Notes under the pieces: model-generated
What the model was told of the DNA's origin: nothing
The model's input: only the letters and a program-made list of their open reading frames with translations
Databases searched by the model: none
DNA from: Candidatus Rifleibacteriota bacterium
Lineage (GTDB): Bacteria > Muiribacteriota > UBA6191 > JACPRK01 > JACQZM01
Reading direction: 5' to 3'
Assembly: GCA_016213885.1 (NCBI GenBank)
Contig: JACQZM010000163.1
Location: 57,590-121,589 of the forward strand
Length of the DNA: 64,000 bases
In this document: positions 9,069-63,232 of the stretch, one piece after another
How positions within the stretch are numbered: position 1 is the first letter of the stretch
How the letters are laid out: the number at the start of each line of letters is the position of its first letter
Position numbers and translations under genes: made by a program

Positions 9069-9081
9069 CGCCCGGCTACAC

Positions 9082-9110: not shown

Positions 9111-9131
9111 GAGCTCGGGTGTGAAGGGAGA

Positions 9132-10890: not shown

Positions 10891-11172
10891 GATCGCCAGC
10901 AGGGCGACGCCCGGGAGCGCGATCGGACGGACAATCCCGAGGACGCGGTGCCGTCCCAGCGATACGCCCGACCCTCCACGTCACCGTTCCAGGCCTGTTC
11001 CCCTGTGGCCACTCTTCCCCGCCTCTGGCATACTGTCGAGGCCATGAGACTCGCCGCCTTGCTCCTCGACCCTCGGGCGTGAGCCGGGTCTCGTTTCCAG
11101 GTGCAACGCTGCAGCGTGACGACTCGTGAGACCGCGGCACGCGGTCTCGAATGAACGTTCAAGGAGGCCCCC

Positions 11173-12480: not shown

Positions 12481-15400
12481 CGCAACCAGCTTCTCGTCGC
12501 GTTCAACGCCACCGCCAGCCCCTACCCCCAGGGTCGCACCTGGATCGAGCTGTTCGAAGAGCGGGTGCTGCGCTCGCCCCGCCGGGTGGCCGTGGAGCTG
12601 GGCGACCGCTCTCTGACCTACGTCGAGCTCGACAGCTGGGCGAACCGGCTGGCTCGGCGGCTGCGCCGACACGGCGTCGGCCCGGAGGACCGCGTCGCGA
12701 TCGTGGCGGACCGGAGCGTCGAGATGATCCCGGGGCTGGTGGGCATCGCCAAGTCCGGCGCCGCCTTCGTTCCCGTGGACCCGGACTACCCCCCCGACCG
12801 CATCCGGTTCATCCTGAAGGACAGCGGCGCCCGGGTGCTGGTGACCCGGCAGCATCTCAGGGAGCGGGCGCCGTTCGACGGGGTGGTCGTGGATCTGGAC
12901 CGGCCACCGGACGAGGACGACTCCGCCCCGGAGCTGCTGGCCGGCCCTTCCAGCCTGGCCTACGTGATCTACACCTCCGGGTCGACCGGCAAGCCCAAGG
13001 GCGTCATGATCGAGCACCGCAACCTGGTCAACCTATGCACCTGGGCCTGCCGCTTCAGGTCGCTGACCGAGCACGATCGATGCACCAAGTTCACCGCCTT
13101 CGGTTTCGACGCCTCCGTCGTCGAGGTGTTCCCCACCCTGCTGGCAGGCGCCGCCCTGGTCGTGATCCCCGACGACATCCGCCTGTCCCCGACGCTGCTC
13201 AGGGACTACCTGGATGACCGGCGGGTCACCGTCTCGATCCTGCCGACCCTGCTGTGCGAGCAGTTCATGGAGCTGCCGGAGCCGCGGGCGTTGCGGTGGC
13301 TGTACACCGGCGGGGAGGCGCTGCGCCAGGTCACCAGGCGGCGGTACACGTTCTCGAACGAGTACGGCCCCACGGAGACCACGGTGATCGCCACGGCGGC
13401 CATCATCGACGGGCCCGGCGCCTCCCTCCCGATCGGTCGGCCCGTGGCCAACACCGAGGCTCTGGTGCTGGACCGGTTCGGCAACCTGCAGCCCTGCGGG
13501 GCGCCCGGCGAGCTCTGCGTGGCGGGGGACGCCGTGGGACGCGGCTACCTCGACCGCCCGGAGCTGACCGCCCAGCGGTTCGTGGCCCACCCGTGGAACC
13601 CTGACAGGCGGATGTACCGCACCGGGGACCTGGTGTGCTGGCGGGAGGACGGACAGCTCGAGTACCTGGGTCGCGTGGACCTGCAGGTGAAGATCCGGGG
13701 CTTCCGCATCGAGCTGGGCGAGATCGAGAACGTGCTGCGCACCCACCCCGGAGTGACCGATGCCGTCGTGGCGGACCGGGTCGACGCGGCCGGCGGAAAG
13801 TACCTGGCCGGCTACTACGTGGCCGACTCCGATCTGGCTCCCGGCGAGATCCGGGCGACGCTGGCGCGCCAGCTGCCGGACTACATGGTGCCGCCGTACC
13901 TGGTGCGCATCGACCGCATCCCGCTGTCGCCGAACGGCAAGGTGGACCGCAAGGCGCTGCCGGAGGTGTCCGGGCTTTGCCAGCAGAGAGCGGAGCCCGT
14001 GCCGCCGGGGACCCCCACCGAGACCGCCCTGGTGGGCCTCTTCAAGGAGATCCTGGGCGTCCCGGTCGGCATCGACGACAGCTTCTTCGCCATGGGCGGC
14101 CAGTCGCTCAGGGCCGCTCTGCTGCAGACGCGGATCGGGCGGGAGTTCGGAGTCCATGTGGCGCTGAAGGCGATCTTCACGGGGCCCACGGTGCGGGCGC
14201 TGGCCGTGGTGGTCGACCGGGAGGTCCGGGCGGCTCCGGCCGCCGGGATCGACGAGACGCCGCCGGCGCCCGCGGCGCCACCTCCAGCGGAGGCGGCCGC
14301 CGGCCAGGCGGCGACCGGGCCCCAGGCCCGCCCGGCATCGGCCACGGGGAGGTTCCCGCTCTCCCACGCCCAGCGTCGCGAGCTGATCACCGAGGTGATG
14401 CACCCCGGCACGGCCAGAGCCTGCCTGCCGTTCTCGGTGATGTTCCGGGGCGCCGTGGACCTCGACCTCCTGGAACGTGCGATCCACGGCGCCGTCGAGA
14501 GGCTCGACGCCTTGCGGCTGCGCCTCACGGCCCGGGGGGGCGACCACGAGCAGATCGTGGCCGAGCCGCGCACTGCCGGGCTGGAGCGGCTGGACCTGGG
14601 AGACGATGCCGACGGCGAGGCGCTGAAGGCGGTGCTGGCCGGGCGGAGCCGCCAGCCGTTCGGGCTCCTGGACACGGACCTCCACCGGTTCGTGCTGCTG
14701 CGGCGCGGCTCCGGCGGCGGTTTCCTGATGGTGCTGCACCACATCGTGGCCGATGGCTGGACCGTCAAGCTGGCCATCGAGACGATCGTGGCGGGCTACC
14801 GAGCCCTGGTGGCGGGTGGCGAACCGGACTCCACGCCGACGCCGTCGTACCGGGAGTACGTGGCCTCCGAGCAGGCCTACCTCGCGTCGGACTGCGCGGC
14901 ATCGGATCGCGACTGGTGGCTGAACAAGCTCGGCGACATCCCCGAGGAGGTCGTGCTGCCGTTCTGCCGGTCCAGGGAGTCCAAGGTGGCCGCGGACAGC
15001 CGGTGGTTCCGCCTGGACCCGGGGGTGACGGCCCGGATGCTCGCCCGTTGCGAGGCCGCCGGGACCACGCCGCACGGTCTGGTCCTCGCCGCGACCTACG
15101 CCTGGGTGGCGAGACTGACCGGCCTCGAGGACATCGTCGTCGGCACCCTGACCCACGGACGGGCCGGGCCCCGCGAGAAGACCCTGGCCGGGATGTGCGT
15201 CAACGCGCTGCCGCTCCGTCTCGCCGTCACGCCGGCCCTCCCGATCGGTGCGCTCGCCCAGGTCGTCGCCGCCGAGCTCAGGGCGACGCTGAAGGGGCAT
15301 GCCCGGTACCCGTTCGACCTTCTGGCCATCGACCTGCGCCGGCTCAACGGCAACCGGGCCGTGAGGCTCCTGAACGTCGTGGTGGTGGGTCAGGATTTCC

Positions 15401-18400
15401 CCGGGGATGCGGAGTACACCACGGAGTACCACCACGCCGGGGGGGAGCAGCCTCCGTACCATCTGATCTTGAACGTGGTTCACAACCGCGCCAGGGCCGG
15501 CGTCGTCGAGCTGCTGCTGGCCTCCCCGGAGGGGATGTTCACCGACGCCGATGGCGCTGCCATGGTGGACGACCTGACGAGCCTGGTGGACCAGCTCGTG
15601 ACGTCGCCCGAGCGCACCGTGGGCCAGCTGTCGGTGCCGTCGCTGGATCGAGGTCTCGTCGATGCGCGGCGAACCTGTTTCCCCCTGGCGCCCGCCCAGA
15701 GGCGGGTGTTCCTGGTGGAGCAGCTCACCGGGGTGGGAACGACGTACAACATCCCGGTGCGCCTCGATATCGAGGGGCCGCTCGACGAGGCCCGGCTGCT
15801 GGCCAGCATCGATGCCCTGGTGGACCGACACGGGGCGCTGCGGACCTCTCTCGAGATCAGAGACGGTGAGCCGGTGCAGGTCGTGCACCCGAAGGTGCGC
15901 TACCGCCCCACCCTGCGGGAGGTCGGGGAGGAGGAGATCGATGCCGCCGTGGCGGCGTTCGTGCGACCGTTCAACCTGGCGGTGGCGCCGCTCATCCGGG
16001 TGGAGCTGATCAGGATCGGTCGGGCCCGGCGGGCGCTCCTTCTGGACTTCCACCACACGGTGTTCGACGGCACCTCCCTCATGGTGTTCCTGCAGGAGCT
16101 GATGATGCTCTACGGAGGTCGAGAGCTGCCTCCGCCAGGCCTGCTCTACCACGAGCACGCCCTGCGCCAGACCAGGGAGCTGGGCTCGGCCAGGCTGCGT
16201 CGACAAGAGCAGTTCTGGCTCGCCGAGCTCGCCGACGGCGCCCCGGTGCTGGACCTTCCCACCGACCTGGCCCGTCCGCCGGTCATGGACTACCGGGGCG
16301 ACCGCTTCACGCTGGAGCTCGATCGCGACCTGACCTGCCGGATCAACGAGCTGGCCAGCCGGACAGGCTCCACCCTCTACATGGTCCTGATGGCGACCTT
16401 CGCGACGCTGCTCTCCCGCTATTCCGGCCAGGACGATCTGGTCATCGGCGCCGGGGCGGCCGGACGGGTCGGCGCCGGCGCGGAACGGACCATCGGGATG
16501 TTCGTCAACACCCTGCCGGTACGGTGCCGCCCCGCCTCCCAAAAGAGCTTTCTGGCCTTCCTGGACGAGACCCGGGACCACCTGCTGACCATCCTCGACC
16601 ACCAGGACTACCCGCTCGAACGGCTGGTGGAGAAGCTCAACGTGAAGCGTGACGCCAGCCGGAGCCCGCTGTTCGACGTGGGTTTCGTGCTGCAGAACAT
16701 GGGGATGCCGCAGCGTCAGACCGTGGGGCAGACGACGTTCGTCCGGCGTGATGCGGCGGCGCCCGTGGCCCGCCTCGACCTGATGCTGGATTGCCTCGAG
16801 GACAGCGGCCGGCTGAGGCTCTCGTTCGAGTACCGCACGTCGCTCTTCCTGCGTCAGACCGTGGGCCAGCTCGCCGGCCACCTGCGCAACCTGCTGCAGG
16901 ACGTGACCGCCCGGCCCGAGGCCCGCTTGGCCGACCTGCAGCTGCTCGCGCCGGCCCAGGAGCGGACGCTCCTGTTCGAGTTGAACCGGCCCCGGGTCGG
17001 CTGCCACGAGGGAGCCACGGTCCTCGCCCGGACGCTGCGCGCCCGGGGGGTGGACCGCGAGGCGATCGTGGCGTTGATGCTCGACAAGGGCCTCGAGATG
17101 ATCGTCGGGATCCTGGCGATCCTGAAGGCCGGCGGCTGCTACCTGCCGATCAAGCCCGACTTTCCCGCGGACCGGATCCAGTTCATGCTGGAGAACTCCG
17201 GCGCCCGGCTCCTCGTCACCACCCCGGAACACCGCGGTCGGGCCGGCACCTTCGACGGCCAGGTGGTGGACCTCCTCTGCACGGCGAGCTTCGACGAGGA
17301 CCCCGGCGATCTGGAACCGGTCAACACCCCCGGGGACCTGATCTACATCATCTACACCTCCGGCTCCACCGGGAAGCCCAAGGGGGTCATGCTGACCCAC
17401 CGCAACGTGGTGTCGCTGATGGCCAACGGCCGGATAGGGCAGCCCGGCTACTACTCCTTCGACGAGACCGACGTGTGGACCATGTTCCACTCGTTCTGCT
17501 TCGACTTCTCGGTGTGGGAGATCTACGGCGCTCTGCTCCACGGCGGCCGGCTGGTCATCGTGTCGAAAGACGTGGCGGTCGACCCGGCGGCGTTCGTGAG
17601 GCTGTGCAAGAGCGAGCGCGTCACGGTGCTGTCCCAGACGCCGGGAGCCTTCTACAACTTCGTCGCCGAGGATCTCAAGACCCCGGACCGCGACCTGACC
17701 ATCCGCTACGTCACGTTCGGCGGCGAGGCGCTGAAGCCGGCGCTGCTGGCCGAGTGGCACACCCGGTACCCCGGCACCAGGCTCATCAACATGTACGGCA
17801 TCACGGAGACCACGGTGCACGTGACGTACAAGGAGATCACGGACGTCGAGATCGCCGCTGGCGCCTCCAACGTCGGCGGCCCCATTCCCAACTGGACGAC
17901 CTACCTCATGGACCGGAACCTCCGGCTGGTCCCCCTGGGCGTGCCGGGAGAGATCTGCGTCGGCGGCGACGGCGTGGCCCGGGGCTACCTCGGCCGGCCG
18001 GAGCTGACGGCGGAGCGGTTCGTGGCCAACCCCTACCGTCCCGACGAACGGGTCTACCGTTCCGGAGACCTGGCGCGGATGCTGCCCTCCGGCGAGATGG
18101 AATACCTGGGGCGCATGGACTTCCAGGTCAAGATCCGGGGTTTCCGCATCGAGCTGGGCGAGATCGAGGGCTGTCTTCTGAAGCACCCGGACGTGAATCG
18201 GGCGGTGGTCGTCGCCAGGGCGGACCGGGACGGCGCCACCTGCATCGTGGCCTACCTGGTGTCGACGGCCGACGTCTCGGTCAACGCTCTCAGGGAGCAC
18301 CTCCTGAGGGATCTTCCCGACTACATGGTGCCGGCCTACTTCGTGAAGCTCGCCGGGATGCCGCTCACCCCGAACGGCAAGGTGGACCGCAAGGCGCTGC

Positions 18401-20361
18401 CCGAACCCACCCCGGACGTCGTCACCGGCGCCCGGATCGTGGAGCCCCGCAACCCGGTCGAGCAGAAGATCGCCGCGGCCTGGTGCAAGGTGCTGGGGCT
18501 CGAGCACGTCTCGGTCCTGGACAACTTCTTCGCCCTGGGCGGACACTCCCTGAGGGCCGTGTCGCTGGTCTCGGAGCTGCAGAAGGACTTCGAGGTCTCG
18601 GTGAACGACATCTTCTCCTACCAGACCGTGGCGGGCCTGGCCGAGCATGCCAAGGTCCGGGAGGACAATCTCAAGCTGCGGATCGGCGAGCTCAAAGAGC
18701 TCATCCCTGCGGCCCGAGCCACCCTGGACCGGGCCGAGCTGTCGGCCCGGCTGGCCGCCTACCGGGAGAGCAACCGGGCGCTGGCCGGGCTCGATCTGGA
18801 GCGTCGATCAGCCTACCGGAACGTGCTGCTCACCGGCACCACGGGCTACCTGGGCGCCCATCTCCTGTACGAGCTCATGACCACCCGGGACGTCGAGGTG
18901 TCCACGGTGGTGCGGGGGAGCTCCGACGCCCTGGCCGGGGCCCGGCTCGAGGAGGTGCTGGCCGGCTACTTCGGCCCCGGGTTCGTGGAGGCGCACCGGG
19001 GGCGGCTGCGGGTGCTGGCCGGCGACCTGGGGGCGGACCGCCTGGGGCTCTCCGAGAGGTGGTGGCAGGCGCTCGGAGCGGGGACCGACGCCATCATCCA
19101 CCCGGCCGCCACGGTGAAGCACTACGGGCCGTACGAGGAGTTCCACCACCACAACGTGAAGGCCGCGGCCAACCGGCTGGAGCTGGCCCGGACCGGTCGG
19201 CCCAAGGCGATGCACCACGTCTCGACGCTGTCGGTGATCCAGGGCCACGCCCCGGGCGTCCGGCACCTCTACCTCGGAGAGGACGATCTGGACCTGGGGC
19301 AGCGTTCGGACAACTACTACGTCAAGACCAAGGTCGAGGCGGAGCGCCTGGTCCTGGCCGCCCGGGCCGAGGGGCTGGACGCCCGCATCTACCGGGTCGG
19401 CAACATCTCCATCAACTCCAGGACCGGTGCCCTGCAGCGGAACATCGAGGAGAACGCCTTCTTCCACCAGGTGCAGGCGTTCGTCAACCTGGGGGTGGTG
19501 CCCCAGGTCGAGGACGAGGCGGAGCTCTCGTTCGTGGACCAGCTCGCCCGGGCCATGGTGTTGCTGCACGACCGCGAGGCGCTGAGGGGCCAGACGTTCA
19601 ACCTGTGGAACCCCCACCGGATCAAGCTCTCGGAGGTGCTCACCGCGCCGGGGCTCGACCTCGCCGTCCGGGCTGTGCCGCTGGATCAGCTCGTCGACCT
19701 GCTCCTGACGCGTTATGACGCCCGCGGCTTCAAGCCGCACGTCGAGGCGATCATGCTGCACCGGGGCTGGATGGATCTTCTCGCTGCCGGGCACGGCCAA
19801 AACGGTGGATCCACGCCGTTCACGATCTTCTCGGAGCGGACCGACCGGATCCTGGACCGGCTCGGTTTCGCCTGGTCCCGGGTCGATCCGCCGCTGCTTT
19901 CGGCCATGGTGGCCGCGGCGCTCTCGGCCCGGGTGGCGTCGTTCCGGTCGAGCCGGATGCTCGCCGGTTGCGACGACGAGACCGTGCTGGCCGTGGCGCG
20001 TCGCGCCCGGATGGGGCTGGCTCCGGCCGGCAGCGCCATCGTCTGGGAGGGGGCGCCGGTGGACGCCGTCCACGTCATCGCTGACGGCCACGTGGAACTG
20101 TTCTGCCGCTCGTCGGCCGGCTGGTTCGGCACGGTCGCCGTGCTGGGGGCCGGGGAGATCCTGGGCGAGGAGAGCCTGGTGGGTCACGGCGAGGCGGCTC
20201 TGTCTGCCGAGGCTCTGTTCGACGACGTGCTCCTCTACTCGATACCTGCTCAGGAGATGGCGCGGCTCCTGGACCGCACGCCGGCCCTGGGCCGGGCCGT
20301 GCTCGCCGCGGTGGTGAGGCGGCTGCACAGCACGGCGCGGCTGGTCGTGGAGATCTCGTGA
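11173..20361 (+). CDS. Non-ribosomal peptide synthetase, two modules: C(starter)-A-T-C-C-A-T-R(thioester reductase)-cNMP-binding domain
   Basis: Strong RBS AAGGAGG at 11158-11164. HHxxxDG motifs at aa 135, 1189 and 1627 (three C-type domains). Two adenylation cores ([50 protein letters not shown] twice). Two PCP motifs ([22 protein letters not shown]). SDR-type reductase ([20 protein letters not shown]). C-terminal Crp/cNMP-binding-like fold. Confidence 0.95.
   Translation: [3062 protein letters not shown]
12535..13960 (+). other. NRPS domain A1 (adenylation), substrate undetermined
   Basis: [28 protein letters not shown], FDAS..., YGPTE, [11 protein letters not shown]. Confidence 0.8.
14005..14217 (+). 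other. NRPS domain T1 (PCP)
   Basis: [16 protein letters not shown] phosphopantetheine-attachment motif. Confidence 0.8.
14350..15640 (+). other. NRPS domain C2 (first of two tandem condensation-type domains)
   Basis: LSHAQRRE (C1 motif), [21 protein letters not shown] (C5-like). Confidence 0.65.
15676..16960 (+). other. NRPS domain C3 (second tandem condensation domain)
   Basis: [36 protein letters not shown]. Confidence 0.7.
16990..18420 (+). other. NRPS domain A2 (adenylation), Thr-like specificity residues
   Basis: FDFSVWE (D235/F236/W239), [27 protein letters not shown]. Hand-extracted code approx D-F-W-S-T-G-M-V-H against Thr D-F-W-N-I-G-M-V-H. Confidence 0.7.
18440..18660 (+). other. 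NRPS domain T2 (PCP)
   Basis: [17 protein letters not shown]. Confidence 0.8.
18820..19900 (+). other. NRPS terminal thioester reductase (R) domain
   Basis: Rossmann motif [14 protein letters not shown], catalytic YYVKTK and the SDR fold. Confidence 0.8.
19950..20358 (+). other. C-terminal cyclic-nucleotide-binding (Crp-like) domain fused to the NRPS
   Basis: [79 protein letters not shown] follows the cNMP-binding beta-roll pattern. The canonical phosphate-binding Arg (RxA) is replaced (LSAEA). Confidence 0.55.
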
Positions 20362-20388: not shown

Positions 20389-23300
20389 ATGGTAGAATGG
20401 GGGTACCGATTCCGGCCGATTTCTCCGGAGAGCGCCTCTCGAGGCCTCATCAGTGGGGTGAATCGCGGTATGGACTCAACGCTCGGCCCGACGAAGCCCG
20501 ATGGCCTGCCCGATCGGACACCGCGGGCGCCGGTGCAGCGCTCGGGCGGTCCGAGAGTGGGCCTCAGGGGGCTCTTGATCCTGGTGAATCTCATCGGGAT
20601 CGGTGGCGGGCTCATCTTCTGGTGGATGCCGGACCAGCGACTGAAGGCCCAGACGCGGACCTGCTACTCCTACCAGAAGATCCTGTCCGGCGGCCTCCGG
20701 ATGTGGTGCGACGACCGTGGCTACCCACCGGAGACCAGAAAGAAGCTCGTCTTGAACGCCGACCTCCTGGCCGCCATGGGGATCGACGGGGCCTACGTCA
20801 GCTGGCAGATCCAGGATCCCGGGGGGGGAGCCGGCAGCTGGAAGTACTACCGGATCGTCCCGGAGACGCTGACGGTGGAGTGCCTGCACCACGGGCCAGT
20901 CGATGGCCCGGGACCGGTCTCGGCCACCAGGGCGCTGGTGCCGACGCCTCTCCGCTCCCCCGTTCCTTTGGCCCCATCGAAGACCTACCGCCGAGACACG
21001 GCCGAGGACCGCGCCGGGGAGCTGCAGCGGCAGGCCGAGGAGCTCGACCGGCGTCTGGCCTTTGGCCTCCTCGACGGCCCGAGCCGCAGGCGACAGCCCT
21101 CACCGGAATCGCCTGCCGACCGGGGCCCGAAGAGGGTCGTCCTGACCGCCGGTCCGGACGTGCCCGACGAGGTCCTCTCGCTGGCCCGGACGCTGCAGGA
21201 GAAGACCGGACCGGTGGCCGATCAGGCGCGGCTGCGGCTGATCCAGACCGGGGCGCCCGCCGTCCCCGCGTTGATCCAGCTGCTCGAGGACGCCAGCGCC
21301 GGCACCCAGGCCCAGGGGGCGCTCGCGCGGATCGGTGCGCCGGCTGTGCCGGCACTGGCTGCGGCGCTTGGTCACCGCGACCCGCTGGTGCGGAGCCGCG
21401 CGGCGTCGGCGCTCGAGCAGATGGGGCCAGCGGCGCAGGGCGCGGTCGCTGACCTCGGAAGAGCGCTGGGCGACGAGGTCGCAGGGATCAGGCGCACCGC
21501 CGTCGCCGCTCTGGGGGCGATCGGGCCGACGGCGGTACGGGCGCTCATCGATGCTCTGGCGCACGACGATCGGGAGGTCAGGGTCGGTGCTCTGCAGGGG
21601 CTTGCGAAGATCGGCCCGGCCGCGGCCCCGGCCGTCCCGGACCTGGTCGCGGCGCTCGCCGACAGAGAGGCGGGCGTGAGGGAGAGTCTGGCCCGGTCGC
21701 TGGGCGCGATCGGCCCGGACGCCGCGGCCGCGGTGCCGCACCTCGTCCGGCTCTTCACCGACTCCGACCGGAGCGTGAGAGTGGAGGCGGTGGCGGCGAT
21801 GGCCAGGCTCGGGCCTGCCGCCGTCGCGACCGTCCCCGACCTGGTACGGATCCTGAAGGATCCGGACTGGACCGTACGGAAGGTGGCCTGCGCCGTGCTC
21901 GCGAGCATGGGGACTGCGGCGAGCGTCTCGTCGCCTGCTCTCATGGAGCTCTGGAAGGACTCGAACGAGCAGGTCCGGACCGCGGCCCTGAGCGCCCTGG
22001 AGAGAGTCTCGCCCACGGCGGCGGCGCTCGAGCAGAACCTGATCGAGGCGCTGAAGCAGTCAGACGCGGCGATCCGGCGCGAGGCGTGCGAGGCGCTCGG
22101 GAGGCTCGGCCCGGCGGCCACCACGGCGACGCCTCATCTCGCCGCGGCCACGCGCGACCCGGCGCAGACGGTCCGGGCCGCGGCGCGGAAGGCGCTGGCG
22201 GCCGTCGGGGCAGGCTCTTCGAGCCTCTTCGCGTCGCTTCTCGAGTCGCTGAAGAGCGACCTGGTCTCGCACAAGAAGGAGGCCTGCCAGGGCCTGGCCG
22301 CCATGGGGCCGTCGGCTCGTGCGGCGATCCCGCCGCTCTCGGCGCTTCTGGCGCACCCGGACCCTTCGGTCAAGGGAGAAGCGATGAAAGCGCTGGCCAG
22401 CATCGCACCGACGCGGGAGACGGTCCAGGCTCTGATCCAGGGGCTGAACGACAAGAACGGCAAGATCAACCTCGCGGCCGCCACGGCGCTGGCCAGCCTG
22501 GGACCGGCCGCGGCCGGTGCCCTGCCCGATCTGGAACGTGCCACTCGCCACTGGAACGCCGCGGTGCGGGTCGAGGCGGTGAAGGCGCTGGTCGCCTCGG
22601 GGTCGCCGGAGGAGATCGTCCCCGTCATGGTCCGGGCGACGAGAGACGGCTTCCCGGAGGCGCGCCACCTCGCCTGCCAGGCGCTGGGGACCCTGGGCCC
22701 CAGGGCCAGCGTGGCGATTCCGGACCTGGCTGCAGTGCTCAGCGACAGGAACGACAAGGCCGCTCGCACGGCGGCCTGGGCGCTGGGCAGGATGGGGCCC
22801 GCCGCGATCCCGGAGCTGGTGCGGGTGCTCATGGATACGTCTCCGCGGCCCCGAGCCCACGCCAAGGTCGCGCTGGAGGCCATCGGGCCCGAAGGCCTGA
22901 TGGCGATCGAGAAGTACGGCTCCAGAGGCCGGTCCAGCGATCGCTCGGAGCTTTCGGAACGCGACATCGGCGCCGACGAGGGCGATCCGGTCGCTGTCGA
23001 GGCGACCCAGGCCGAGACCGCCTCCGGCCTCGACGTCTCCGGGCTCGTCGATCAGCTCCGGAGTCCGGATCACCGGGTGCGGGAGCGGGCCACGGCAGCC
23101 CTTTCGCGGGTCGGTTCACCAGCGGTGGCCACGCTTGGCGTCTCGCTGGCCGACGTGAACGCCACTGTGCGACAGGGAGCCGCGAAGGCGCTCGGGGAGA
23201 TCGGGCCGCCGGCAGCCGAGGCGGTCCCGGCGCTCGTGGCGGCGTGCAAGGATCGAACGGCCAGTGCCTCCGCCCAGAGGGCGCTCGAGAGGATCGGCCC

Positions 23301-23793
23301 CGCGCCGGCCAGCGCCATCGGAGCGCTCTCGGAGCTCATCACCGACCGGGACCCGACCGTGAGAGAGGCCGCTGCCCGGGCGCTGGCCATGATCGGCGCC
23401 GTCGCGGTCCCGGCGCTCGTGAGCTCCATGGGAAGCCGGTCCGGCGAGGCGAGGACGGCGGCCCTCGACGCCCTGGCCCGGATGGGTCCGGCGGCGCGCG
23501 CGGCGCTGCCGACCCTGCGCAAGGCGATGCACGACGGCGATGGATCGGTCAGGATGCAGGCCGCGGTGGCCGTGGGCCGGATGGGTGAAGCCGCCGTGCC
23601 GGTGCTGATCGAGGAGCTTGGCGCCCCGGAACAGTCCGTCAGGCAGCTGTCGGCATGGGCGCTGGGCGAGATCGGGCCCGAGGCCGGTCACGCCATCCCG
23701 GCGCTGCAGCAGGCTTCGAAAGACCCTGAGCCGTCGGTGCGCAAGGCTGCGGCGAAGGCTCTCGACAAGATCGGATGGGTGCGGGGCCGCTGA
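20389..23793 (+). CDS. Membrane-anchored HEAT-repeat (PBS-lyase-type) protein, about 1100 aa, 28 bp downstream of the NRPS
   Basis: N-terminal TM (LLILVNLIGIGGGLIFWW), then more than 20 HEAT-like repeats (ALGAIGPTAVRALIDALAHDDREVRVGALQGLAKIGPAAAPAVPDLVAAL...). Confidence 0.75.
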   Translation: MVEWGYRFRPISPESASRGLISGVNRGMDSTLGPTKPDGLPDRTPRAPVQRSGGPRVGLRGLLILVNLIGIGGGLIFWWMPDQRLKAQTRTCYSYQKILSGGLRMWCDDRGYPPETRKKLVLNADLLAAMGIDGAYVSWQIQDPGGGAGSWKYYRIVPETLTVECLHHGPVDGPGPVSATRALVPTPLRSPVPLAPSKTYRRDTAEDRAGELQRQAEELDRRLAFGLLDGPSRRRQPSPESPADRGPKRVVLTAGPDVPDEVLSLARTLQEKTGPVADQARLRLIQTGAPAVPALIQLLEDASAGTQAQGALARIGAPAVPALAAALGHRDPLVRSRAASALEQMGPAAQGAVADLGRALGDEVAGIRRTAVAALGAIGPTAVRALIDALAHDDREVRVGALQGLAKIGPAAAPAVPDLVAALADREAGVRESLARSLGAIGPDAAAAVPHLVRLFTDSDRSVRVEAVAAMARLGPAAVATVPDLVRILKDPDWTVRKVACAVLASMGTAASVSSPALMELWKDSNEQVRTAALSALERVSPTAAALEQNLIEALKQSDAAIRREACEALGRLGPAATTATPHLAAATRDPAQTVRAAARKALAAVGAGSSSLFASLLESLKSDLVSHKKEACQGLAAMGPSARAAIPPLSALLAHPDPSVKGEAMKALASIAPTRETVQALIQGLNDKNGKINLAAATALASLGPAAAGALPDLERATRHWNAAVRVEAVKALVASGSPEEIVPVMVRATRDGFPEARHLACQALGTLGPRASVAIPDLAAVLSDRNDKAARTAAWALGRMGPAAIPELVRVLMDTSPRPRAHAKVALEAIGPEGLMAIEKYGSRGRSSDRSELSERDIGADEGDPVAVEATQAETASGLDVSGLVDQLRSPDHRVRERATAALSRVGSPAVATLGVSLADVNATVRQGAAKALGEIGPPAAEAVPALVAACKDRTASASAQRALERIGPAPASAIGALSELITDRDPTVREAAARALAMIGAVAVPALVSSMGSRSGEARTAALDALARMGPAARAALPTLRKAMHDGDGSVRMQAAVAVGRMGEAAVPVLIEELGAPEQSVRQLSAWALGEIGPEAGHAIPALQQASKDPEPSVRKAAAKALDKIGWVRGR

Positions 23794-33288: not shown

Positions 33289-33610
33289 TGGGCTCCTCGT
33301 TTCCTTGTCTCCAGGGCGCCGTCTGGCGAGCGCCGGGACAGGCTCCAACGGCCCTGGACGGCGATGCGAACCGGAGACGAGCGCGTGAAGGTCGGGCGGA
33401 GGATCGCTCCGCCGGGTCGATCGACCGCCGGGATTCTACCACGATCCGGGGCCGGCGAGATGCCGGTTGAGGCAATCCGTCGCCGGTGGTAGTAGACTCC
33501 CCTGGATCCGGCGGGGAGATGGCCCGGCGGACGATCCCTGCGGGCTCGCCGGCTTCGCCGGTACTCGGCCGGGGGACGACCGGCTCGCGAGTGGTCCTTG
33601 GAGGGCGACG

Positions 33611-34810
33611 ATGAATCCAGCAGGACTGATGGTGGCGGAGAAGCTCGATCAGGTTCCCGGCATCCTCCGGGAGGTGGGCGTGGACGTCTGGCTCCTGTTC
33701 ACGCGGGAGAGCCACGCGGTCCACGACCCGAGCCTCGACCTCGTGGTCGGCACCGGCGTGACCTGGCAATCGGCGTTCATCCTGACGGCGAGCGGCGACC
33801 GGGTGGCGATCGTGGGCAGCCTCGAGATGGCTCTCATGAAGACGCACGGTCACTACCCCGAGGTCGTGGGCTACGTGGGAGGCATCTCCGACGACCTCCG
33901 CCGGGTGCTGGCGCGCCTCGACCCGAAGCGGATCGCCATCGACTTCTCCGAGAGCGATCCCATGTCCGACGGCCTCACCCACGGCATGTACCTGACGCTC
34001 CGCCGGATCCTGGGCGAGACCCCCTACGGGGACCGCCTGGAATCCTCGGAGCGGGTCGTGGCGGCGCTCCGCGGGAGGAAGTCGGTCACGGAACGGGCCC
34101 GGATCCGGAAGGCCTGCGAGATCACGGTGGAGATCTTCGATCGGCTCACGAGCAGGCTGCGGGCCGGGCTCACGGAGAAGCAGGTGGCGGCGCTGATCAT
34201 GGACGAGGTGCAGGCGCTCGGAGGGCCTGAGCTGGCCTGGACCGCGGAGTGCTGCCCGGCGGTGTTCACCGGACCGGAATCGGCCGGCGCCCACGCCGGT
34301 CCCACCGACCGGGTCATCGAGCCGGGTCACATCATGAACGTCGACTTCGGCGTGAAGGTCGAGGGGTACTGCTCGGACCTGCAGCGTACCTGGTACTTCT
34401 TGAGGCCCGGCGAGGACCGGGCCCCGGAGGAGGTGGCGCGGGGGTTCGACGTGATCGTCCAGTCCATCAGGGCCGCGGCCGCCGCGGTGAAGCCGGGCCG
34501 TCCCGGGTGGGAGATCGACCGGGTCGCCCGCTCGACCATCACGGAGCGAGGCTACGCGGAGTATCCCCACGGCACGGGCCATCAGGTCGGCCGGGCGGCC
34601 CACGACGGCGCCGGCGGGTTCCTCCCCCTGTGGGAGCGGTACGGCAACACCCCCAACCTCCCGATCGAGGTGGGGCAGTGCTACACCATCGAGCCGCGGC
34701 TCACGGTGGAGCGCCACGGCATCGCCACCTGCGAGGAGATCGTGGCGGTCACCCGGGACGGCTGCGAGTTCCTGTCGCGCCCCCAGGACACCCTCTACCT
34801 CGTCCGGTGA
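33611..34810 (+). CDS. M24-family Xaa-Pro aminopeptidase/dipeptidase (creatinase N-terminal domain plus pita-bread domain)
   Basis: HIMNVDFGVKVEGYCSDLQRTW, HGTGHQVG and CYTIEP metal-ligand motifs. Confidence 0.85.
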   Translation: MNPAGLMVAEKLDQVPGILREVGVDVWLLFTRESHAVHDPSLDLVVGTGVTWQSAFILTASGDRVAIVGSLEMALMKTHGHYPEVVGYVGGISDDLRRVLARLDPKRIAIDFSESDPMSDGLTHGMYLTLRRILGETPYGDRLESSERVVAALRGRKSVTERARIRKACEITVEIFDRLTSRLRAGLTEKQVAALIMDEVQALGGPELAWTAECCPAVFTGPESAGAHAGPTDRVIEPGHIMNVDFGVKVEGYCSDLQRTWYFLRPGEDRAPEEVARGFDVIVQSIRAAAAAVKPGRPGWEIDRVARSTITERGYAEYPHGTGHQVGRAAHDGAGGFLPLWERYGNTPNLPIEVGQCYTIEPRLTVERHGIATCEEIVAVTRDGCEFLSRPQDTLYLVR

Positions 34811-35035
34811 AGACCCGGCGTCCAGCCGGGTCCGAGTCGCAAGACCCGGCGCCTCGCCGGGTCCGAGTCGCGCCCCCGAGCGCGACCTCAATCCGGATCC
34901 CCTCCTCTTTCCTCTCTCTCCCGAGCGCGACCTCCAACCTGATCCCCTCCTCTTCCTTTGTGACTCTGCAGCCAGGACGAGGCCTGATCACAGGCCCGAC
35001 TCCGCGAAACAGGTGGGGGATCCTGGCCTGGCCCA
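34811..35035 (+). repeat. Copy B of composite repeat: two ~30-bp direct repeats, two ~38-bp direct repeats, then the 65-bp hairpin core
   Basis: Direct repeat pairs GACCCGGCG..CCGGGTCCGAGTCGC and CGAGCGCGACCTC.A.C.GATCCCCTCCTCTT, then the core at 34959-35023. The element starts right after the peptidase stop codon and is near-identical to 62975-63185 inverted. Confidence 0.65.
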
Positions 35036-35118
35036 GGATTTGACAGACAGAATCTCACGGCGGTATCGTTCATCGAGGGCTGTCGAGGCATGACCCGCCG
35101 GCTTGCGGGACTCTCGGC

Positions 35119-39049: not shown

Positions 39050-42465
<3,416 letters not shown>

Positions 42466-45400
42466 GAGTCCCGGGGGCGGAGCGTCCCTCGAGAGAGGGC
42501 AACACCTCGCCGTACCACTTCCAGAGGAGATAGATGGCCGGGTAGACCAGGAGCTCCATGGCGAACGACGTGCCCAGACCGCCGACCATCGGGGCGGCCA
42601 CCCGTTTCATCAGGTCCGCTCCGGTTCCCGTGCTCCACATGATCGGCATCAGGCCCATCGACGCCGCGGCCACGGTCATCAGCTTGGGGCGGATGCGTTT
42701 GACGGCGCCGTGGATGATCGCCTCGTGCAGATCCGCCAGGCTCCTCAGCCGGCCCTCGCGCCGGGCCTGGTCGTACGAGAGATCCAGAAACAGGAGCATG
42801 AAGACCCCGGTCTCGGCGTCCAGGCCCATCAGGGCGATCATGCCGACCCAGACCGCGATGGAGACGTTGTAGTCGAGCAGGTAGAGGAGCCACACCGCCC
42901 CGACGACCGAGAACGGCACGGCCAGCATGACCACCAGGGTCTTGAACGCCGAGCCGGTGTTCAGGTAGAGCAGGAGGAAGATGAGCAGGATCGTCAGCGG
43001 CACGACGATCTTCAGCCGCTCGCGAACCCGGAGCATGTTCTCGTACTGACCGCTCCACACCACCGAGTAGCCCGTGGGCAGGTTCAGCTGCCGGGCCACC
43101 TCCCGCTTTCCCTCCTCGACGTAGCCGCCGATGTCGCGGCCGGTGATGTCGACGTAGACGTAGCCCGCCAGCATCCCGTTCTCGTCCCGGATCATCGCCG
43201 GGCCGTCGACGAGCCGGATGTCCGCCAGTTCGCCCAGAGGAACCTGGCGCCCCATCCGCACGGTGACCAGCACGCGGTGGAGCTGATCGAGATCGGCCCT
43301 CAGATCGCGAGGATAGCGGAGGTTGATCGAGTAGCGCTCCCTCCCCTAGATCGTCGTCGCGATGGTCTCCCCGCCGATGGCGGTCAGGAGGACCGTGTGC
43401 ACGTCGTCGATGGACAACCCGTGACGGGCCAGCGCGTCTCTCCTGGGAGCGATGTCCACGAAGAAGCCGCCCGACGCACGCTCGGCGAAGATGGAGCGCG
43501 TGCCGGGCACCTTCCGCAACACGCTCTCGATCCGCTCCCCGATGCGCTGGATCTGCCCGAGGTCGGCTCCGAAGATCTTGATGCCGATCGGAGTGCGGAC
43601 GCCGGTGGAGAGCATGTCGATGCGCCCCTTGATCGGCATCGTCCAGGCGTTGATGTTGCCGGGGATCTGGAGCGCCCGGTCCATCTCACCGATCAGATCC
43701 TCCCACGAGATGTGCTCGGGCCAGATGTGACCGAGGAGCGCTCGCAGCGGTCCGGGCCAGGACGAGAAGAACCGGGTCTTCTTCCGCCACTGGTCCTTCG
43801 GCTTGAGCACGACGGTGGTCTCCATCATCGAGAACGGGGCGGGGTCGGTGGACGTGTCGGCGCGCCCTGCCTTTCCGAAGACCGAGGCCACCTCCGGGAA
43901 CGATCGGAGGATACGGTCCTGGATCCTCATCAGCCGCTGGGCCTCGGTGACGGCGAGCCCGGGCATCGTCGTGGGCATGTAGAGGATCACGCCCTCGTTG
44001 AGCGGCGGCATGAACTCGGTGCCGAGCCGGAGATAGACCGGCACCGTGCCGGCCACGACGAGAACCGAGAGGGCGATGACGGTCCTGGGGTGTCGCAGCA
44101 CGAAGCGGCAGGGCTTCTCGTAGAGCCAGAACAGCACCCGACTTATCGGGTGCTTGTCCTCGGGATAGTACGTTCCCACGAACAGACCGCTCGCCAGCGA
44201 CGCCAGCCAGCGGGGACGGAACGTGTACGGTTCCATCCGGGCGAACAGCATCCGCACCGCCGGGTCGAGAGTCACGGCCAGCAGGGCGGCCAGCGCGATG
44301 GTCAGAGTCTTGGTGTAGGCCAGCGGTTTGAACAGCCGACCCTCCTGGTCCATCAGGGTGAACACCGGAAGGAACGAGACCGCGATCACCAGGAGCGAGA
44401 AGAAGACCGACGGCCCGACCTCCATCAACGCTTCCAGCCGGATCTTGTGGAAGTCTCCCTTGCGCCCGCCCTCCTGCCAGAGCTCGAGCTTCTTGTAGGC
44501 GTTCTCGACCTCCACGATCGCCCCGTCCACCAGCACTCCGATGGAGATCGCGATGCCGGCCAGGCTCATGATGTTCGACGACAGGCCCGCGGCGTACATC
44601 GGAATGAACGCCAGCACCACCGAGATCGGTATGGTCACGATCGGCACGATCGCGGACGGGATGTGCCAGAGGAAGAACAGGATCACGAGGCTGACGATGA
44701 TCATCTCCATCGTCAGCTCCTCCTTGAGGTTGTCGATCGACTTCTCTATCAGCTCCGAGCGATCGTAGGTGTTGACGACCTCGACGCCCTCGGGCAGCGA
44801 GGGCGCAAGCTGGGCGAGCTTGGCCTTGATCCGCTCGATGACGGTCAGCGCATTCTCTCCGTGGCGCATCACGACGATCCCGCCGACCACGTCGCCCTTC
44901 CCGTCGAGATCGGAGACCCCCCGGCGCATCTGCGGTCCCAGCGAGATGTCGGCCACGTTCCGGAGCAACACGGGCGTCCCTTGCTGGCTGGTCTTCACGA
45001 CCACCTGACCCAGCGTGGCCGGATCGTTCACATAGCCGCGGCCTCGCACCATGTACTCGCGCCCGTTCCACTCGAGGAGTCGACCGCCCACCTCGTTGTT
45101 GCCCTTCCGGATGGCGTCCATCAGCTGCATCAGCGAAAGACCGTGGTCGGCCAGCCGGTTCGGGTCGATCGTCACCTGGTACTGCTTCTGGAAGCCGCCG
45201 ATCGACGCCACCTCGGCCACGCCCGGCACGCTCTGCAGCGCATATCGGAGGTTCCAGTCCTGGAAGGAACGCAGCTTGGCCAGGTCATGCTTGCCCGCCC
45301 GGTCGACCAGGGCGTACTGGAACACCCAGCCGACGCCGGTGGCGTCGGGGCCCAGCTGAGGCGTGACCGAAGGGGGGAGGCTGCCGGTGATCCTCTGCAA

Positions 45401-45774
45401 GTACTCGAGAACGCGGCTGCGGGCCCAGTAGATGTCCGTACCGTCCTGGAAGATGACGTACACGTAGGAGAATCCGAAATCCGAGAATCCGCGGATCGCC
45501 TTGACCTTCGGCACTCCCAGGAGCGCCGTGATGATCGGGTAGGTCACCTGGTCCTCGACGATGTCGGGGCTGCGATCCCACTTCGTGAAGACGATGACCT
45601 GGGTGTCCGACAGGTCCGGGATGGCATCGAGCGCGATGTTCTTCATCGCGAAGATCGCGTAGGCCACCGAGGCCGCGGTCAGCATGATGACGAGCGCCCT
45701 GTTCGTGGCCGAGAACCCGATCAGTCGATGGATGACCGTGGAGGAGGAACCGTGAGGGCTCTCGGTGTCCGTGA

Positions 45775-47016
45775 TCATGGCCGGGTCTCGGCGTTCAGGG
45801 CCTCGATCGCCGCCCTCATGGACGATTCCGAATCGACCAGGAAGTTCGCCGCCGTGACGACGCGGTCGCCCGCGGCCAGACCCGACAGAACCTCGTAGAC
45901 GCCGTCGAAGCGCGAACCGATCGAGATCTCGACCGGGACCAGCCTCCCCCTCCCGGCGTCACGGAACGCGTACATCTTCTCACCGGTCCGCATCACGGCT
46001 TCCTCCGGGACGGCGAGCCTCTCGCCCAGCGAATAGGACAGTCGCGCGTTTGCGAACATCTCGGGCTTGAGCAAGAGGTCGCCGTTGGGAACCGTCATGC
46101 GGGCCTTCATCGTTCGCGTCTCGGGATCCAGTGTCGGGGAGACGAAGGTCACCGTCCCCTTGAAGCTCCGCCCCGGCCAGTAGGGCAGCGTCAAGGTCGA
46201 CGACATGCCGACCTTCACGTAGGGCAGATCCGACGGGTAGATGTCCGCGTCGGCCCAGACCGACGACAGGTCCGCGATGGTGAAGAGCGGCTCCCCCATG
46301 ATCTTCTGGCCGGGCAAGACCGTCCGCTCCAGGACGACACCGGTCGCCGGGGACTGGATCGTCAGCGTCTTGTCCACGGCGCCGGTCCTCTCCAGGCGGG
46401 CGATCTGCGCGTCGGTGATGTCGAACAGGGAGAGCCGCTTTCTCGCGATCTGCATGAGATCCCTGCCGGACTGCAGGGCCGTGAGATACTCCTGTTGCGC
46501 CGTGACCAGCGTCGGGCTGTAGATGGTCAGAAGGGGCTCCCCAGCCTTCACGAACTGACCGGTCGTCGCGACGAAGAGCCGGTCGACCCACCCCTCGACC
46601 TTCACGCTGACCCTGTGGAGTCTGGTCTCATCTGCCACGATGCGCGCCGAAGTGCGAACGATGCGGGACAGGGGGCGTTTCTTCACGGTCCCGAGCGCCA
46701 GTCCCATGAGCTCGCGCGTGGAGGTCGTGATCGACACGGCCGAAAGACCCGCCGGAGTGCCCTCGTCTTCCCCGGGCGAAGACGCGGGAGACTGTTCGAT
46801 CGGCACGAGCTTCATCCCGCAGATCGGGCAGTCGCTGGGTCTGTTATCGATCACGGTAGGGTGCATGGGACAGTGGTACTGCGTGGCCGCGGCGAGGCCG
46901 GGCGAGCTCGAGCCTCCGCCGCAGCCTCCGGCCAGCACCAGCAGGCCGAGCATCGGCGCCAGGAACGCCGCCAGGCCAGGGCGACGGGTCTTCGGGTTCG
47001 ACATGATCCTCCGCAA
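45775..47016 (-). CDS. cusB: CusB-like RND periplasmic adaptor with N-terminal heavy-metal-binding motif
   Basis: YHCPMHPTVIDNRPSDCPICGMKL metal-binding domain plus the membrane-fusion-protein barrel-sandwich/beta-barrel regions. Start overlaps cusA (ATGA). Confidence 0.85.
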   Translation of the reverse strand: MRRIMSNPKTRRPGLAAFLAPMLGLLVLAGGCGGGSSSPGLAAATQYHCPMHPTVIDNRPSDCPICGMKLVPIEQSPASSPGEDEGTPAGLSAVSITTSTRELMGLALGTVKKRPLSRIVRTSARIVADETRLHRVSVKVEGWVDRLFVATTGQFVKAGEPLLTIYSPTLVTAQQEYLTALQSGRDLMQIARKRLSLFDITDAQIARLERTGAVDKTLTIQSPATGVVLERTVLPGQKIMGEPLFTIADLSSVWADADIYPSDLPYVKVGMSSTLTLPYWPGRSFKGTVTFVSPTLDPETRTMKARMTVPNGDLLLKPEMFANARLSYSLGERLAVPEEAVMRTGEKMYAFRDAGRGRLVPVEISIGSRFDGVYEVLSGLAAGDRVVTAANFLVDSESSMRAAIEALNAETRP

Positions 47017-47950: not shown

Positions 47951-47987
47951 GAGGGCGGGGGGGGGGCGGCCCGGGTTCTCGCCCCTG

Positions 47988-48052
47988 GTGACTCGGCAGC
48001 CAGGCCGAGGCCTGATCACAGGCCCGACTCCGCGAAACAGGCGGGGGATCCT
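47988..48052 (+). repeat. Copy C of 65-bp hairpin-core repeat, preceded by a G10 homopolymer
   Basis: GGTGACTCGGCAGCCAGGCCGAGGCCTGATCACAGGCCCGACTCCGCGAAACAGGCGGGGGATCC; poly-G at 47957-47966. Confidence 0.6.
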
Positions 48053-48115
48053 GGCGCGGCCTCCTGAGCCTTCTACTCGAGACTGCTCCGAGGTCGTTCC
48101 CGGGATCCCCGCACC

Positions 48116-55151: not shown

Positions 55152-55654
55152 ACCACGGCCCTGGATGAAAGCCGGTCCGGACGGGGGCCGGGTAGGCGAG
55201 AGCGCCCTCTCTTCACACGATTCTCAACATCCGGTTACCAATAGTCTCATCCCTCCTTCCGTATGTCACGAGGGACATCCGCCCCCGCCTCTCGCCGACA
55301 TCCACCGGCGCGGAACAAGAGAAGCACCCGCCGGCCGAGCGACAGAATCGAGGCGGTTTCTCGTCCTGGCTCGACGCGGATGGTTCGGGCAGGACAGTAA
55401 CACGGTGATGGCACTGAAATCCACTCATGATCAGCACTTCGGAAGGACTGAACGAGATATCGGATGGCCCACATGCGAAAAGAGGGGTCTCATGTCCCCG
55501 GGCTCGGACCGGGTGCACCGTCAGCTCCCCTCGCCATGCGAGCTCTCCTCCGGTGGACAGGCCATGGACCGGCTTGCACGGACCCGGCGAGGTCAGCTAT
55601 GCTGAACCACGTGATGTGATGCGCCCTCGGGTCTGTCCGCAAGAGGAGACTGCG

Positions 55655-56515
55655 ATGAGCACAGCGACGGCACCCCTGCTCCCTACCATCGAGCTCCCCT
55701 ACGATGATGGCGAACCCATGGACTCACCGTGGCACCGTGCTCAGATGGAGCTCCTGATTCAGTCCACCCACGTCCATTGGGGTGACCGTTCCGACTACTA
55801 CACCGGCGGCAACATGTTCGTGTACTTCAGCTTCGATCAGGTGCGCACGCACGATTACCGCGGCCCGGACTACTTCACCGCCGTCGGAGTCGACGGCACC
55901 AAGGAACGCAAGGCCTGGGTGGTATGGGAGGAGGGTGGACGGTACCCGGACATCATCATCGAGCTTCTGTCGCCGTCGACCCGCTCCGACGACCTCGGGA
56001 CGAAGAAGAGCCTCTACGAGCGGGTTTTCCGGACGATCGAGTACTTCTGTTACGACCCGGAGTCCCGGGACCTGTCAGGGTGGCGGCTCCTCCGGGGACG
56101 ATACGAAGCGATCGAACCGGGAGGCGGAGGCCGGATGGGGAGTGACGTGCTCGGGGCGTCCCTGGGGCTCTGGGAGGGTACCTTCGACCGGATCAGCGGC
56201 GCGTGGCTCCGACTCTGGGACCACAAGGGCAGACTCGTGTCGCTGGACAGCGAGCGCGCCGAAGCCGAGCACGCGCGAGCCGAAGCCGAGCACGAGCGCG
56301 CCGAAGCCGAGCACGCACGAGCCGAAACCGCCCAGCAGCGAACCGCCATCGTCCAGGAGGCGGGTCGCTTTCTCGGGCTGTTTCATCGACAGGGTGCCCA
56401 GGCGACGCTCGCCCAACTGCGTCGGGTCGGCGGGGGTCGAGTCGACCGTCTGATCGACGAGATCGAGGCGTTGGACCCGGACGCCGGGCACGCGCTGCGG
56501 AGCGCGGGTTCGTGA
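55655..56515 (+). CDS. Uma2-family endonuclease (DUF820) with internal RAEAEH x3 tandem repeat
   Basis: LPYDDGEPMDSPWHR ... PDIIIELLSPST ... is the Uma2 signature. RBS AAGAGGAG. 18-bp repeats at 56258-56330. Confidence 0.8.
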   Translation: MSTATAPLLPTIELPYDDGEPMDSPWHRAQMELLIQSTHVHWGDRSDYYTGGNMFVYFSFDQVRTHDYRGPDYFTAVGVDGTKERKAWVVWEEGGRYPDIIIELLSPSTRSDDLGTKKSLYERVFRTIEYFCYDPESRDLSGWRLLRGRYEAIEPGGGGRMGSDVLGASLGLWEGTFDRISGAWLRLWDHKGRLVSLDSERAEAEHARAEAEHERAEAEHARAETAQQRTAIVQEAGRFLGLFHRQGAQATLAQLRRVGGGRVDRLIDEIEALDPDAGHALRSAGS

Positions 56516-63185: not shown

Positions 63186-63232
63186 GCCCGACGTTGCGGA
63201 TCTCCGATCGCCTGCCCTATTCTTACGTTCCC

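Follow-up and report, generated by a model that had tools for sequence, protein, structure and literature searches.

In well-studied bacteria, mRNA stability, termination and gene ends are influenced by small dispersed repeats, among them the REP/BIME, BOX, ERIC and Correia elements. We know of almost nothing on small dispersed repeats in candidate phyla. The BOX elements of Streptococcus pneumoniae and S. suis are built as boxA-boxB(n)-boxC (Croucher et al. 2011, PMC3049150); both of their strands contain open frames, which lead to false or lengthened ORFs, they are transcribed together with adjacent operons, and neither a transposase nor a duplication of the target is known for them (PMC3049150). 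The REP and BIME sequences of enterobacteria and pseudomonads are linked to RAYT transposases (PMC3733652, PMC2817692), a REP being an imperfect palindrome of 20–40 nt with a GTAG/CGTC tag at the foot of its hairpin (PMC3733652). The cuckoo/CcsR (RSs0680) sRNAs of Alphaproteobacteria consist of 2–4 adjacent hairpins with CCUCCUCCC in each loop (PMC4615179, PMC8034643). The 64-kb stretch of the genome of an uncultured groundwater bacterium, a member of Candidatus Riflebacteria, analysed here (hereafter the window) contains four copies of a GC-rich repeat, which we think it reasonably probable represent a new, lineage-restricted mosaic family of dispersed repeats of the BIME/REP or BOX class. 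The family is new as a sequence family, and its kind is well known.

The exact 26-mer GAGGCCTGATCACAGGCCCGACTCCG, which includes the perfect hairpin GGCCTG-ATCA-CAGGCC, occurs four times in the window, at positions 9021, 34979 and 48007 (+) and at 62990–63015 (−), and its chance expectation in 100 dinucleotide-preserving shuffles is 0.00. This count and direct reading of the sequence confirm the four copies at the places given by the original prediction. Alignment and profile searches delimit a core, termed module C, at 8990–9066 (+) in copy 1, 34948–35027 (+) in copy 2, 47976–48055 (+) in copy 3, which consists of the core alone, and about 62967–63046 (−) in copy 4. A separate repeat search retrieved the same family, with copies 2 and 4 as an inverted long pair (34810–35035, +, and about 62967–63185, −) displaying 90–92% identity over 217–220 nt, in agreement with the near-identity over about 220 bp initially proposed. 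The copies diverge from one another by 3–11%, in addition to their module content, and searches of the 64-kb window with each module using blastn and nhmmer returned zero additional copies. The right boundary is sharp and constant, directly after CCTGG in all copies, while the left part is variable. The flanks of all four copies are unrelated in the alignments and the family is thus not a segmental duplication, the origin that the original prediction had named as its refutation.

Three hairpin-bearing modules were resolved by alignment and within-copy repeat searches, A of 31 nt, B and its variant B' of about 45 nt, and C of about 80 nt, which follow each other as A-A-B-B-C in copies 2 and 4 and as B'-C in copy 1, with C by itself in copy 3. 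Module A (consensus AAGACCCGGCGCCTCGCCGGGTCCGAGTCGC) is a 31-nt unit that displays a 9-bp G+C hairpin, and both long copies contain a tandem pair of it. The first A unit of copy 2 (AAGACCCGGCGTCCAGCCGGGTCCGAGTCGC; 34810–34840, +) has an 8-bp GC hairpin and overlaps, through its first base, the TGA of an M24 peptidase gene, and the second (34841–34871, +) is the consensus unit with the 9-bp hairpin GACCCGGCG-CCT-CGCCGGGTC. The two A units of copy 4 (63122–63183, −) end 49 nt before the ATG at 63233 (+) of a divergent Ser/Thr-kinase-like gene. The A pair is predicted to fold at −43 kcal/mol versus −26.6 kcal/mol when shuffled (z −5.5), and the whole elements have predicted folding z values of −4 to −4.6. 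Module B has a 45-nt period and is also present twice in each long copy, at 34872–34947 (+) in copy 2 and 63047–63121 (−) in copy 4, with 86% and 76% identity, respectively, over 42 aligned nt; the second unit of copy 4 is the more diverged. Unit 1 of copy 2 completes the hairpin TCGCGC-CCCCGA-GCGCGA, and each B unit is closed by the CU-rich tract GGATCCCCTCCTCTT. The 25-nt polypyrimidine run at 34898–34922 is the sole run of at least 18 nt in the window. In copy 1 the diverged unit B' (8955–8989, +) displays the hairpin TCGCGC-CTGAGA-GCGCGA followed by a degenerate CU tract, and this variant was found again in three ORFs elsewhere in the genome. Core C opens with the CU-rich lead TCCTCTTCCYTGG, part of which is retained by the shortest copy. 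Within each pair, the A units and the B units follow one another in tandem and in the same orientation, without spacers, at periods of 31 nt and 45 nt, respectively. Thus, of the repeats initially described, the tandem pair of about 30 bp is present with an exact unit of 31 nt (90–97% identical), the pair of about 38 bp is present but with a period of 45 nt, and the common core of about 65 bp, with its hairpin, is retained but extends to about 80 nt when the CU-rich lead is included.

Core C is predicted to fold into a three-way junction, identical in all copies, formed by the outer stem CCAGG/CCUGG and two hairpins. Hairpin 1 is predicted as CG-A-GGCCUG AUCA CAGGCC-CG and hairpin 2 as CUCCGC GAAACAG GUGGGG; hairpin 2 requires two G-U pairs, thus restricting the predicted core fold to the sense strand. 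In the minimum-energy folds the CU tract is predicted to be unpaired and to lie between hairpins. The best-conserved stretch comprises hairpin 1 and the 3'-adjacent CGACTCCGC. Among the five copies available as nucleotide sequence, 17 of the 19 predicted core pairs are invariant, one changes from G-U to G-C and one is broken. Only two of the 12 variable columns, out of 71 columns common to the five copies, fall within the 38 paired positions (Fisher p 0.006, binomial p 0.010), values to be read with the structure having been predicted from the same sequences and the copies not being independent. The substitutions in the core may therefore avoid the predicted stems, a pattern that is suggestive only. 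Amino-acid differences between the proteins that encode the extra copies described below imply that position 30 of the junction, which is unpaired, varies (C, A or T), and that there are changes at junction A52 and in the loop of hairpin 2, twice more a U-to-C change opposite G in hairpin 2, and a U54-to-C change opposite G70. The hairpin 1 translation, RPDHRP, is invariant. This substitution pattern is consistent with the hairpins being under selection or being recognised, either as RNA or as DNA.

The neighbouring genes were assigned from frames with high third-position G+C, ORF lists, Pfam and one translation, and the ORFs of the neighbours confirm the earlier claim that all four window copies are intergenic. 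Copy 1 has a CHASE2 Ser/Thr kinase gene (stop at 8906) on one side and the toxin-antitoxin genes vapBC on the other. Copy 2 starts at the TGA of the M24 aminopeptidase gene (33467–34810, +), whose protein has an intact C-terminus (...LYLVR) when compared with homologues, and ends 13 nt before the promoter-like TTGACA-18-TATCGT (35040–35069), which is followed by CMD-family and radical-SAM genes. Copy 3 lies between the convergent genes of a DUF3347 protein (stop at 47950) and a Cys/Met PLP enzyme (stop at 48116). Copy 4 is placed between a divergent ribbon-helix-helix-like gene (start 62664, −) and the kinase-like gene (start 63233, +), the latter recognised by its HRD...DFG motifs. The neighbours thus display arrangements of all kinds, tandem, convergent and divergent, with copies 1–3 downstream of co-oriented genes. 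A position mostly directly after a stop codon, as initially described, is observed for copy 2, but copies 1 and 3 start about 35–50 nt and 26 nt past the stop, respectively, and copy 4 follows no stop. No promoter-like or T-run terminator-like site was found inside any copy, with zero terminator-like sites in or next to the copies, and Pfam and ORF searches found no transposase, RAYT, Y1 or IS gene in the 64-kb window.

The surroundings of the copies have features of their own. Just outside copy 1, a promoter-like site of vapBC (9082–9110, TTGAGG-17-TAGAAT) overlaps the inverted repeat TACACA-N6-TGTGTA (9089–9106), which is likely the VapB operator. Matches of the M24 aminopeptidase in the protein collection do not exceed 74% identity, although other proteins of the same contig are present there exactly; the gene may be unannotated or differently annotated in the MAG, possibly due to the repeat at its stop codon. 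On the antisense strand of copy 4, an open frame at 62795–63232 (+) is in phase with the kinase-like gene and its ATG at 63233, such that gene callers could add a repeat-encoded N-terminal extension to the kinase-like protein, mirroring the C-terminal tails of five ORFs described below. In the 64 kb, homopolymer runs of at least 9 nt are found only at 47957–47966 (G10) and at 62859–62869 (C11, +), both no more than about 100 nt away from a copy. Read on the sense strand of copy 4, the latter is G11, versus G6 in two related contigs (L044 and L045), and its length is thus variable; the homopolymers beside the copies could be due to chance, to a tract prone to slippage, or to an effect of sequencing or assembly. 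The ribbon-helix-helix-like gene (163 aa, HY815_09750) with about 245 nt upstream (62163–62907, −) was found at 86–92% nucleotide identity in Logan contigs of other runs with different flanks. Its 90% protein cluster has 14 members (JGI, ENA, Logan), all on contigs shorter than 3.4 kb, and contig L044 also carries a UPF0236 (transposase-family) gene; this unit may itself be mobile or multi-copy. At the copy 4 locus the related Logan contigs share only 62163–62907 and diverge 60 nt before the repeat, and no pair of empty and filled sites was found among the loci compared.

Further copies were retrieved with a query made as a chimera of six-frame translations of copy 2, searched against 5.8 billion proteins. 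Exactly five proteins matched, all from one MAG, Candidatus Riflebacteria bacterium, on five other contigs (HY815_14940, HY815_26200, HY815_07585, HY815_00235 and HY815_11155). Five proteins of the window are identical in sequence to the GenBank proteins MBI4860495.1, MBI4860496.1, MBI4860499.1, MBI4860530.1 and MBI4860531.1 of the same HY815 MAG, encoded on a contig of 132,964 nt, which places the extra copies in the genome that the window itself comes from. The modules of the extra copies, as read from the protein frames by comparison with the window copies, are A-B-B'-C in the tail of ORF P0122, a partial A followed by A-B'-C in P0126, A-A-B-B-B' and then the start of C in P0125, and A-partial B-A-B in P0124. 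The tail of P0123 displays, on the opposite strand, B-B-B-A and then B-B-A, with the core not visible. Only about ten copies are documented. The five ORFs are all annotated with repeat-encoded C-terminal tails, and in four of them the repeat lies directly past the last conserved protein residues, without a stop codon, such that the ORF runs into the repeat. The tails are probably a consequence of annotation or read-through, and the translation-based search, which finds only copies abutting open frames, is biased to the 3' ends of genes. The location of copy 2 at the M24 stop, together with the repeat past the last conserved residues in the four ORFs, suggests an insertion-like placement.

Outside this MAG, a scan of genome collections gave at least one match, a 2,096-nt contig (L001, CAZCDK010000258.1) of a MAG labelled uncultured Anaerolineaceae. 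The contig ends inside the core (2024–2096), displays 93–96% identity to the window copies (blastn) and has 69% G+C, and the protein collection contains no relatives of its CPBP-protease-like protein. L001 is probably a mis-binned fragment of a Riflebacteria-like genome and not a repeat of another phylum. The exact core 23-mer had zero matches in JGI metagenomes, and the 40 loci retrieved there with a degenerate core pattern are all chance matches that lie in coding sequence. No repeat match was obtained in viral contigs or plasmids, and the loci of the nearest M24 homologues (72–74% identity, not syntenic) contain no repeat copy. The Logan contig L047 (SRR12113402), from the same organism, is 100% identical to window 9032–11372 and has its first bases within hairpin 1 of copy 1, the kind of break that a repeat is expected to cause in an assembly graph. 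As far as these sequence comparisons reach, the family is restricted to one lineage. A literature search returned no description of repeats in Riflebacteria.

When the family is compared with known systems, its closest analogue is the pneumococcal BOX element and the second closest the BIME/REP clusters. The comparison with BOX is made by described architecture and is one of analogy, not of homology, which would be unexpected given 68% GC and a different phylum. Like BOX, the Riflebacteria family displays three kinds of module in a fixed order with the internal module present from zero to several times, is intergenic and often located just downstream of genes, and is predicted to fold tightly if transcribed. 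Similarly, both strands are open, ORFs are extended or invented, and neither a transposase nor a clear target duplication has been identified. In contrast with BOX, the family resides in a GC-rich host of another phylum, its first module, A, is also tandem, and its arrays can be without module C; boxA pairs with boxC, but no A-C pairing is evident. The likeness to REP/BIME lies in GC-rich extragenic hairpins combined with other short motifs in mosaic clusters, without terminal inverted repeats (TIRs) or target-site duplications (TSDs), mostly downstream of coding regions and sometimes inside genes, where protection of mRNA 3' ends and attenuation have been proposed. Unlike REP/BIME, the modules are of 31–80 nt, carry no GTAG/CGTC and follow each other in direct, not alternating, tandem, and no RAYT is present in the window. 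A canonical REP, as defined in PMC3733652, is thus rejected, there being no tag, no inverted dimers and longer units in direct tandem. Of the three identities initially suggested, a REP-like element is nevertheless the closest, the family being dispersed, hairpin-rich, intergenic and modular, while the tag and the inverted pairs are missing. With cuckoo/CcsR RNAs the family shares a modular series of hairpins, a CU-rich motif similar to an anti-Shine-Dalgarno sequence and multiple copies, and cuckoo is co-transcribed with its upstream gene. The Riflebacteria motif is CCCCUCCUCUU versus CCUCCUCCC and is located between hairpins instead of in loops, there is no Rfam match, the contexts are mutually unrelated, and antisense and core-less arrays exist. 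Membership of the cuckoo/CcsR RNAs was rejected on the description in PMC4615179, CCUCCUCCC being absent and the CU tract lying outside the hairpin loops. Rickettsia palindromic elements (RPE) and intragenic REPs similarly represent insertions tolerated in or at the end of coding regions and translated as an extra peptide (PMC3049150, PMC3733652). RPE insert in frame inside genes, whereas the Riflebacteria repeat replaces the stop codon.

Several other identities were considered and rejected. The exclusion of a CRISPR, an IS and a tRNA in the original prediction was correct, with no spacers and no IS gene in the window; for a CRISPR, the A and B units are contiguous, without unique spacers of similar length. 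The stems are strong but are followed by no T run, as the usual definition of an intrinsic terminator requires. A hammerhead ribozyme was rejected despite CUGAUCA...GAAA, since the essential G of CUGAUGA is C, stem II is missing and the junction strands are of 1, 1 and 3 nt; other small ribozymes were considered along with it and also rejected. The frames of the core are open, but the differences between copies are non-synonymous and the loci use different frames and strands, which argues against a coding core. The perfect 16-bp palindrome could suggest an operator or regulon site, but the conservation around it extends over 80–220 nt, and the genes beside the copies are not related to each other. 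The spacing and architecture are unlike those of integron attC and dif/Xer sites.

Three origins of the repeat were weighed. In the first, single-stranded hairpins of a REP/RAYT-type or IS200/IS605-derived element would be moved by a Y1 tyrosine transposase whose gene lies elsewhere in the genome, either a RAYT or a TIRYT, the latter a Y1 transposase described in Acidobacteria. Cut-and-paste of a single-strand hairpin would account for the absent TIRs and TSDs and for one constant end. The hairpins of the family, the sharp right boundary that is constant after CCTGG next to a varying left part, and the conservation peak at hairpin 1 and its 3'-adjacent stretch are consistent with this origin, as is the location of REPs mostly downstream of genes, also inside genes and in mosaic clusters (PMC3733652). 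However, GTAG or CGTC adjoins no A, B or C hairpin, the units are in direct tandem without head-to-head or tail-to-tail dimers, the window contains no Y1 transposase and modules of 31–80 nt are far above the 20–40 nt of a REP, and we consider this origin unlikely. A classical MITE, the deletion derivative of an IS moved by the DDE transposase of that IS, is agreeable with a size of 70–225 nt, intergenic positions, strong predicted folding and multiple copies. A search for inverted repeats with 6-nt seeds in both long copies found internal hairpins only, with no pair joining the start of A and the end of C common to both, and no target-site duplication was observed at any of the four copies when their flanks were aligned and read. 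A strict MITE is thus rejected for want of both signatures, and the MITE option of the original prediction falls with it. The repeat is, in addition, GC-rich and not AT-rich, its copies differ by whole modules and not by internal deletions, and no IS is present in the window; a classical MITE is largely refuted and very improbable. A trivial origin in assembly chimeras of a metagenome bin or in local segmental duplication is scarcely credible: the MAG was assembled from short reads and the repeat does interrupt assemblies, but the copies diverge by 3–11% and differ in module content, the flanking genes are intact and unrelated, and more copies are found on five other contigs and in an independent assembly.

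As the main rival to a dispersed repeat, the copies would encode regulatory small RNAs, either as separate transcripts or as products cleaved from 3'-UTRs, in which the core would serve as a scaffold and the CU tracts would pair with ribosome-binding sites. The sense-strand core fold is predicted to be identical in all copies, with hairpin 2 made specific to a single strand by its G-U pairs, the changes in the extra copies turn U-G/G-U into C-G/G-C, and the avoidance of stems by the substitutions could equally mean that selection acts on an RNA having its own function. In the predicted fold the CU tract is unpaired, copies 1–3 lie downstream of co-oriented genes, and multi-copy modular anti-Shine-Dalgarno sRNAs co-transcribed with the upstream gene are known (PMC4615179). 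In contrast, Rfam 15 gave zero matches at the gathering threshold in the whole window, and permissive thresholds returned only E values of 0.7–7, far under the gathering scores. There is no promoter inside the copies or at their 5' edge and no T-run terminator past the core, the core-only copy has just a degenerate CU lead, B and A arrays without the core occur in antisense beside genes, and copy 4 occupies the promoter region of divergent genes. The copies lack the exact cuckoo motif, their CU tract is not in a hairpin loop, and covariation is not observed, 17 of 19 pairs being invariant among near-identical copies. This explanation, in which the CU tract GGAUCCCCUCCUCUU would act through its resemblance to the anti-Shine-Dalgarno end of 16S rRNA, as in the modular CCUCCUCCC cuckoo/CcsR RNAs, is rather unlikely. 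The small structured RNA suggested by the original prediction thus retains the substitutions that avoid the core stems, set against the missing Rfam match, promoter and T-run terminator and the existence of core-less arrays. A shade more doubtful is the view that the core is a structured RNA of an undescribed kind, in which a three-way junction with protected stems would be carried on a mobile modular cassette with anti-Shine-Dalgarno-like CU tracts, as a dispersed post-transcriptional regulator. If so, the family could supply 3'-UTR-derived sRNAs that occlude ribosome-binding sites, or the core could be the RNA or single-stranded-DNA handle of a mobilising enzyme.

The mosaic dispersed repeat is the reading to which the observations point. 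The sequence is repeated, modular and restricted to one lineage with unrelated flanks, and signatures of coding, promoter, terminator, TIR and TSD are absent. Ordered modules in variable unit numbers, hairpins, unrelated flanks, occurrence in every kind of intergenic context, placement at or over stop codons, restriction to one lineage and non-coding character together argue for this class. We infer that the units would spread as DNA through a trans-acting activity that recognises hairpins, as for REP/BIME with RAYT and BOX with an enzyme yet to be named, and that unit numbers would afterwards be altered by slippage or unequal recombination. Co-transcription with the upstream gene would place the A hairpins and the folded core at mRNA 3' ends, where they would most plausibly impede 3'-to-5' exonucleases or read-through; the A hairpins are without a U tract, and a role as terminator is therefore uncertain. 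An insertion that removes the stop codon would leave a repeat-encoded tail on the protein.

The family provides a concrete and well-delimited example, with a clear module grammar, of a dispersed repeat in Candidatus Riflebacteria. Its effect on annotation is visible in the five ORFs with repeat-encoded tails and in assemblies that break at the core, and for practical work it gives rise to mis-annotated proteins and to fragmented or mis-binned contigs in metagenomes of this lineage. It could also serve as a marker for strain typing. Its biological importance hinges on functional transcription and on what moves the repeat.

Other features of the window were observed at a distance from the repeat. 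The gene of a CusA/AcrB-type RND transporter is present as two separate ORFs on the reverse strand (42362–43273 and 43346–45778, −), which match Pfam ACR_tran positions 779–1019 and 2–629, respectively, suggesting a frameshift, a stop or an assembly error; the split gene adjoins a CusB-like gene (45775–47016) and outer-membrane efflux genes. The 21-nt tandem repeat CGAGCGCGCCGAAGCCGAGCA, with about four units that are 90% identical (56251–56334), lies near the end of a Uma2-family endonuclease ORF (55427–56515). A 3,062-aa ORF (11173–20361, +) contains internal repeats about 4.4 kb apart that, by their sequence, resemble adenylation motifs of a non-ribosomal peptide synthetase with two modules. 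Next comes a HEAT-repeat protein of 1,134 aa (Pfam; 20389–23793, +), the DNA of which displays a 99-nt periodicity.
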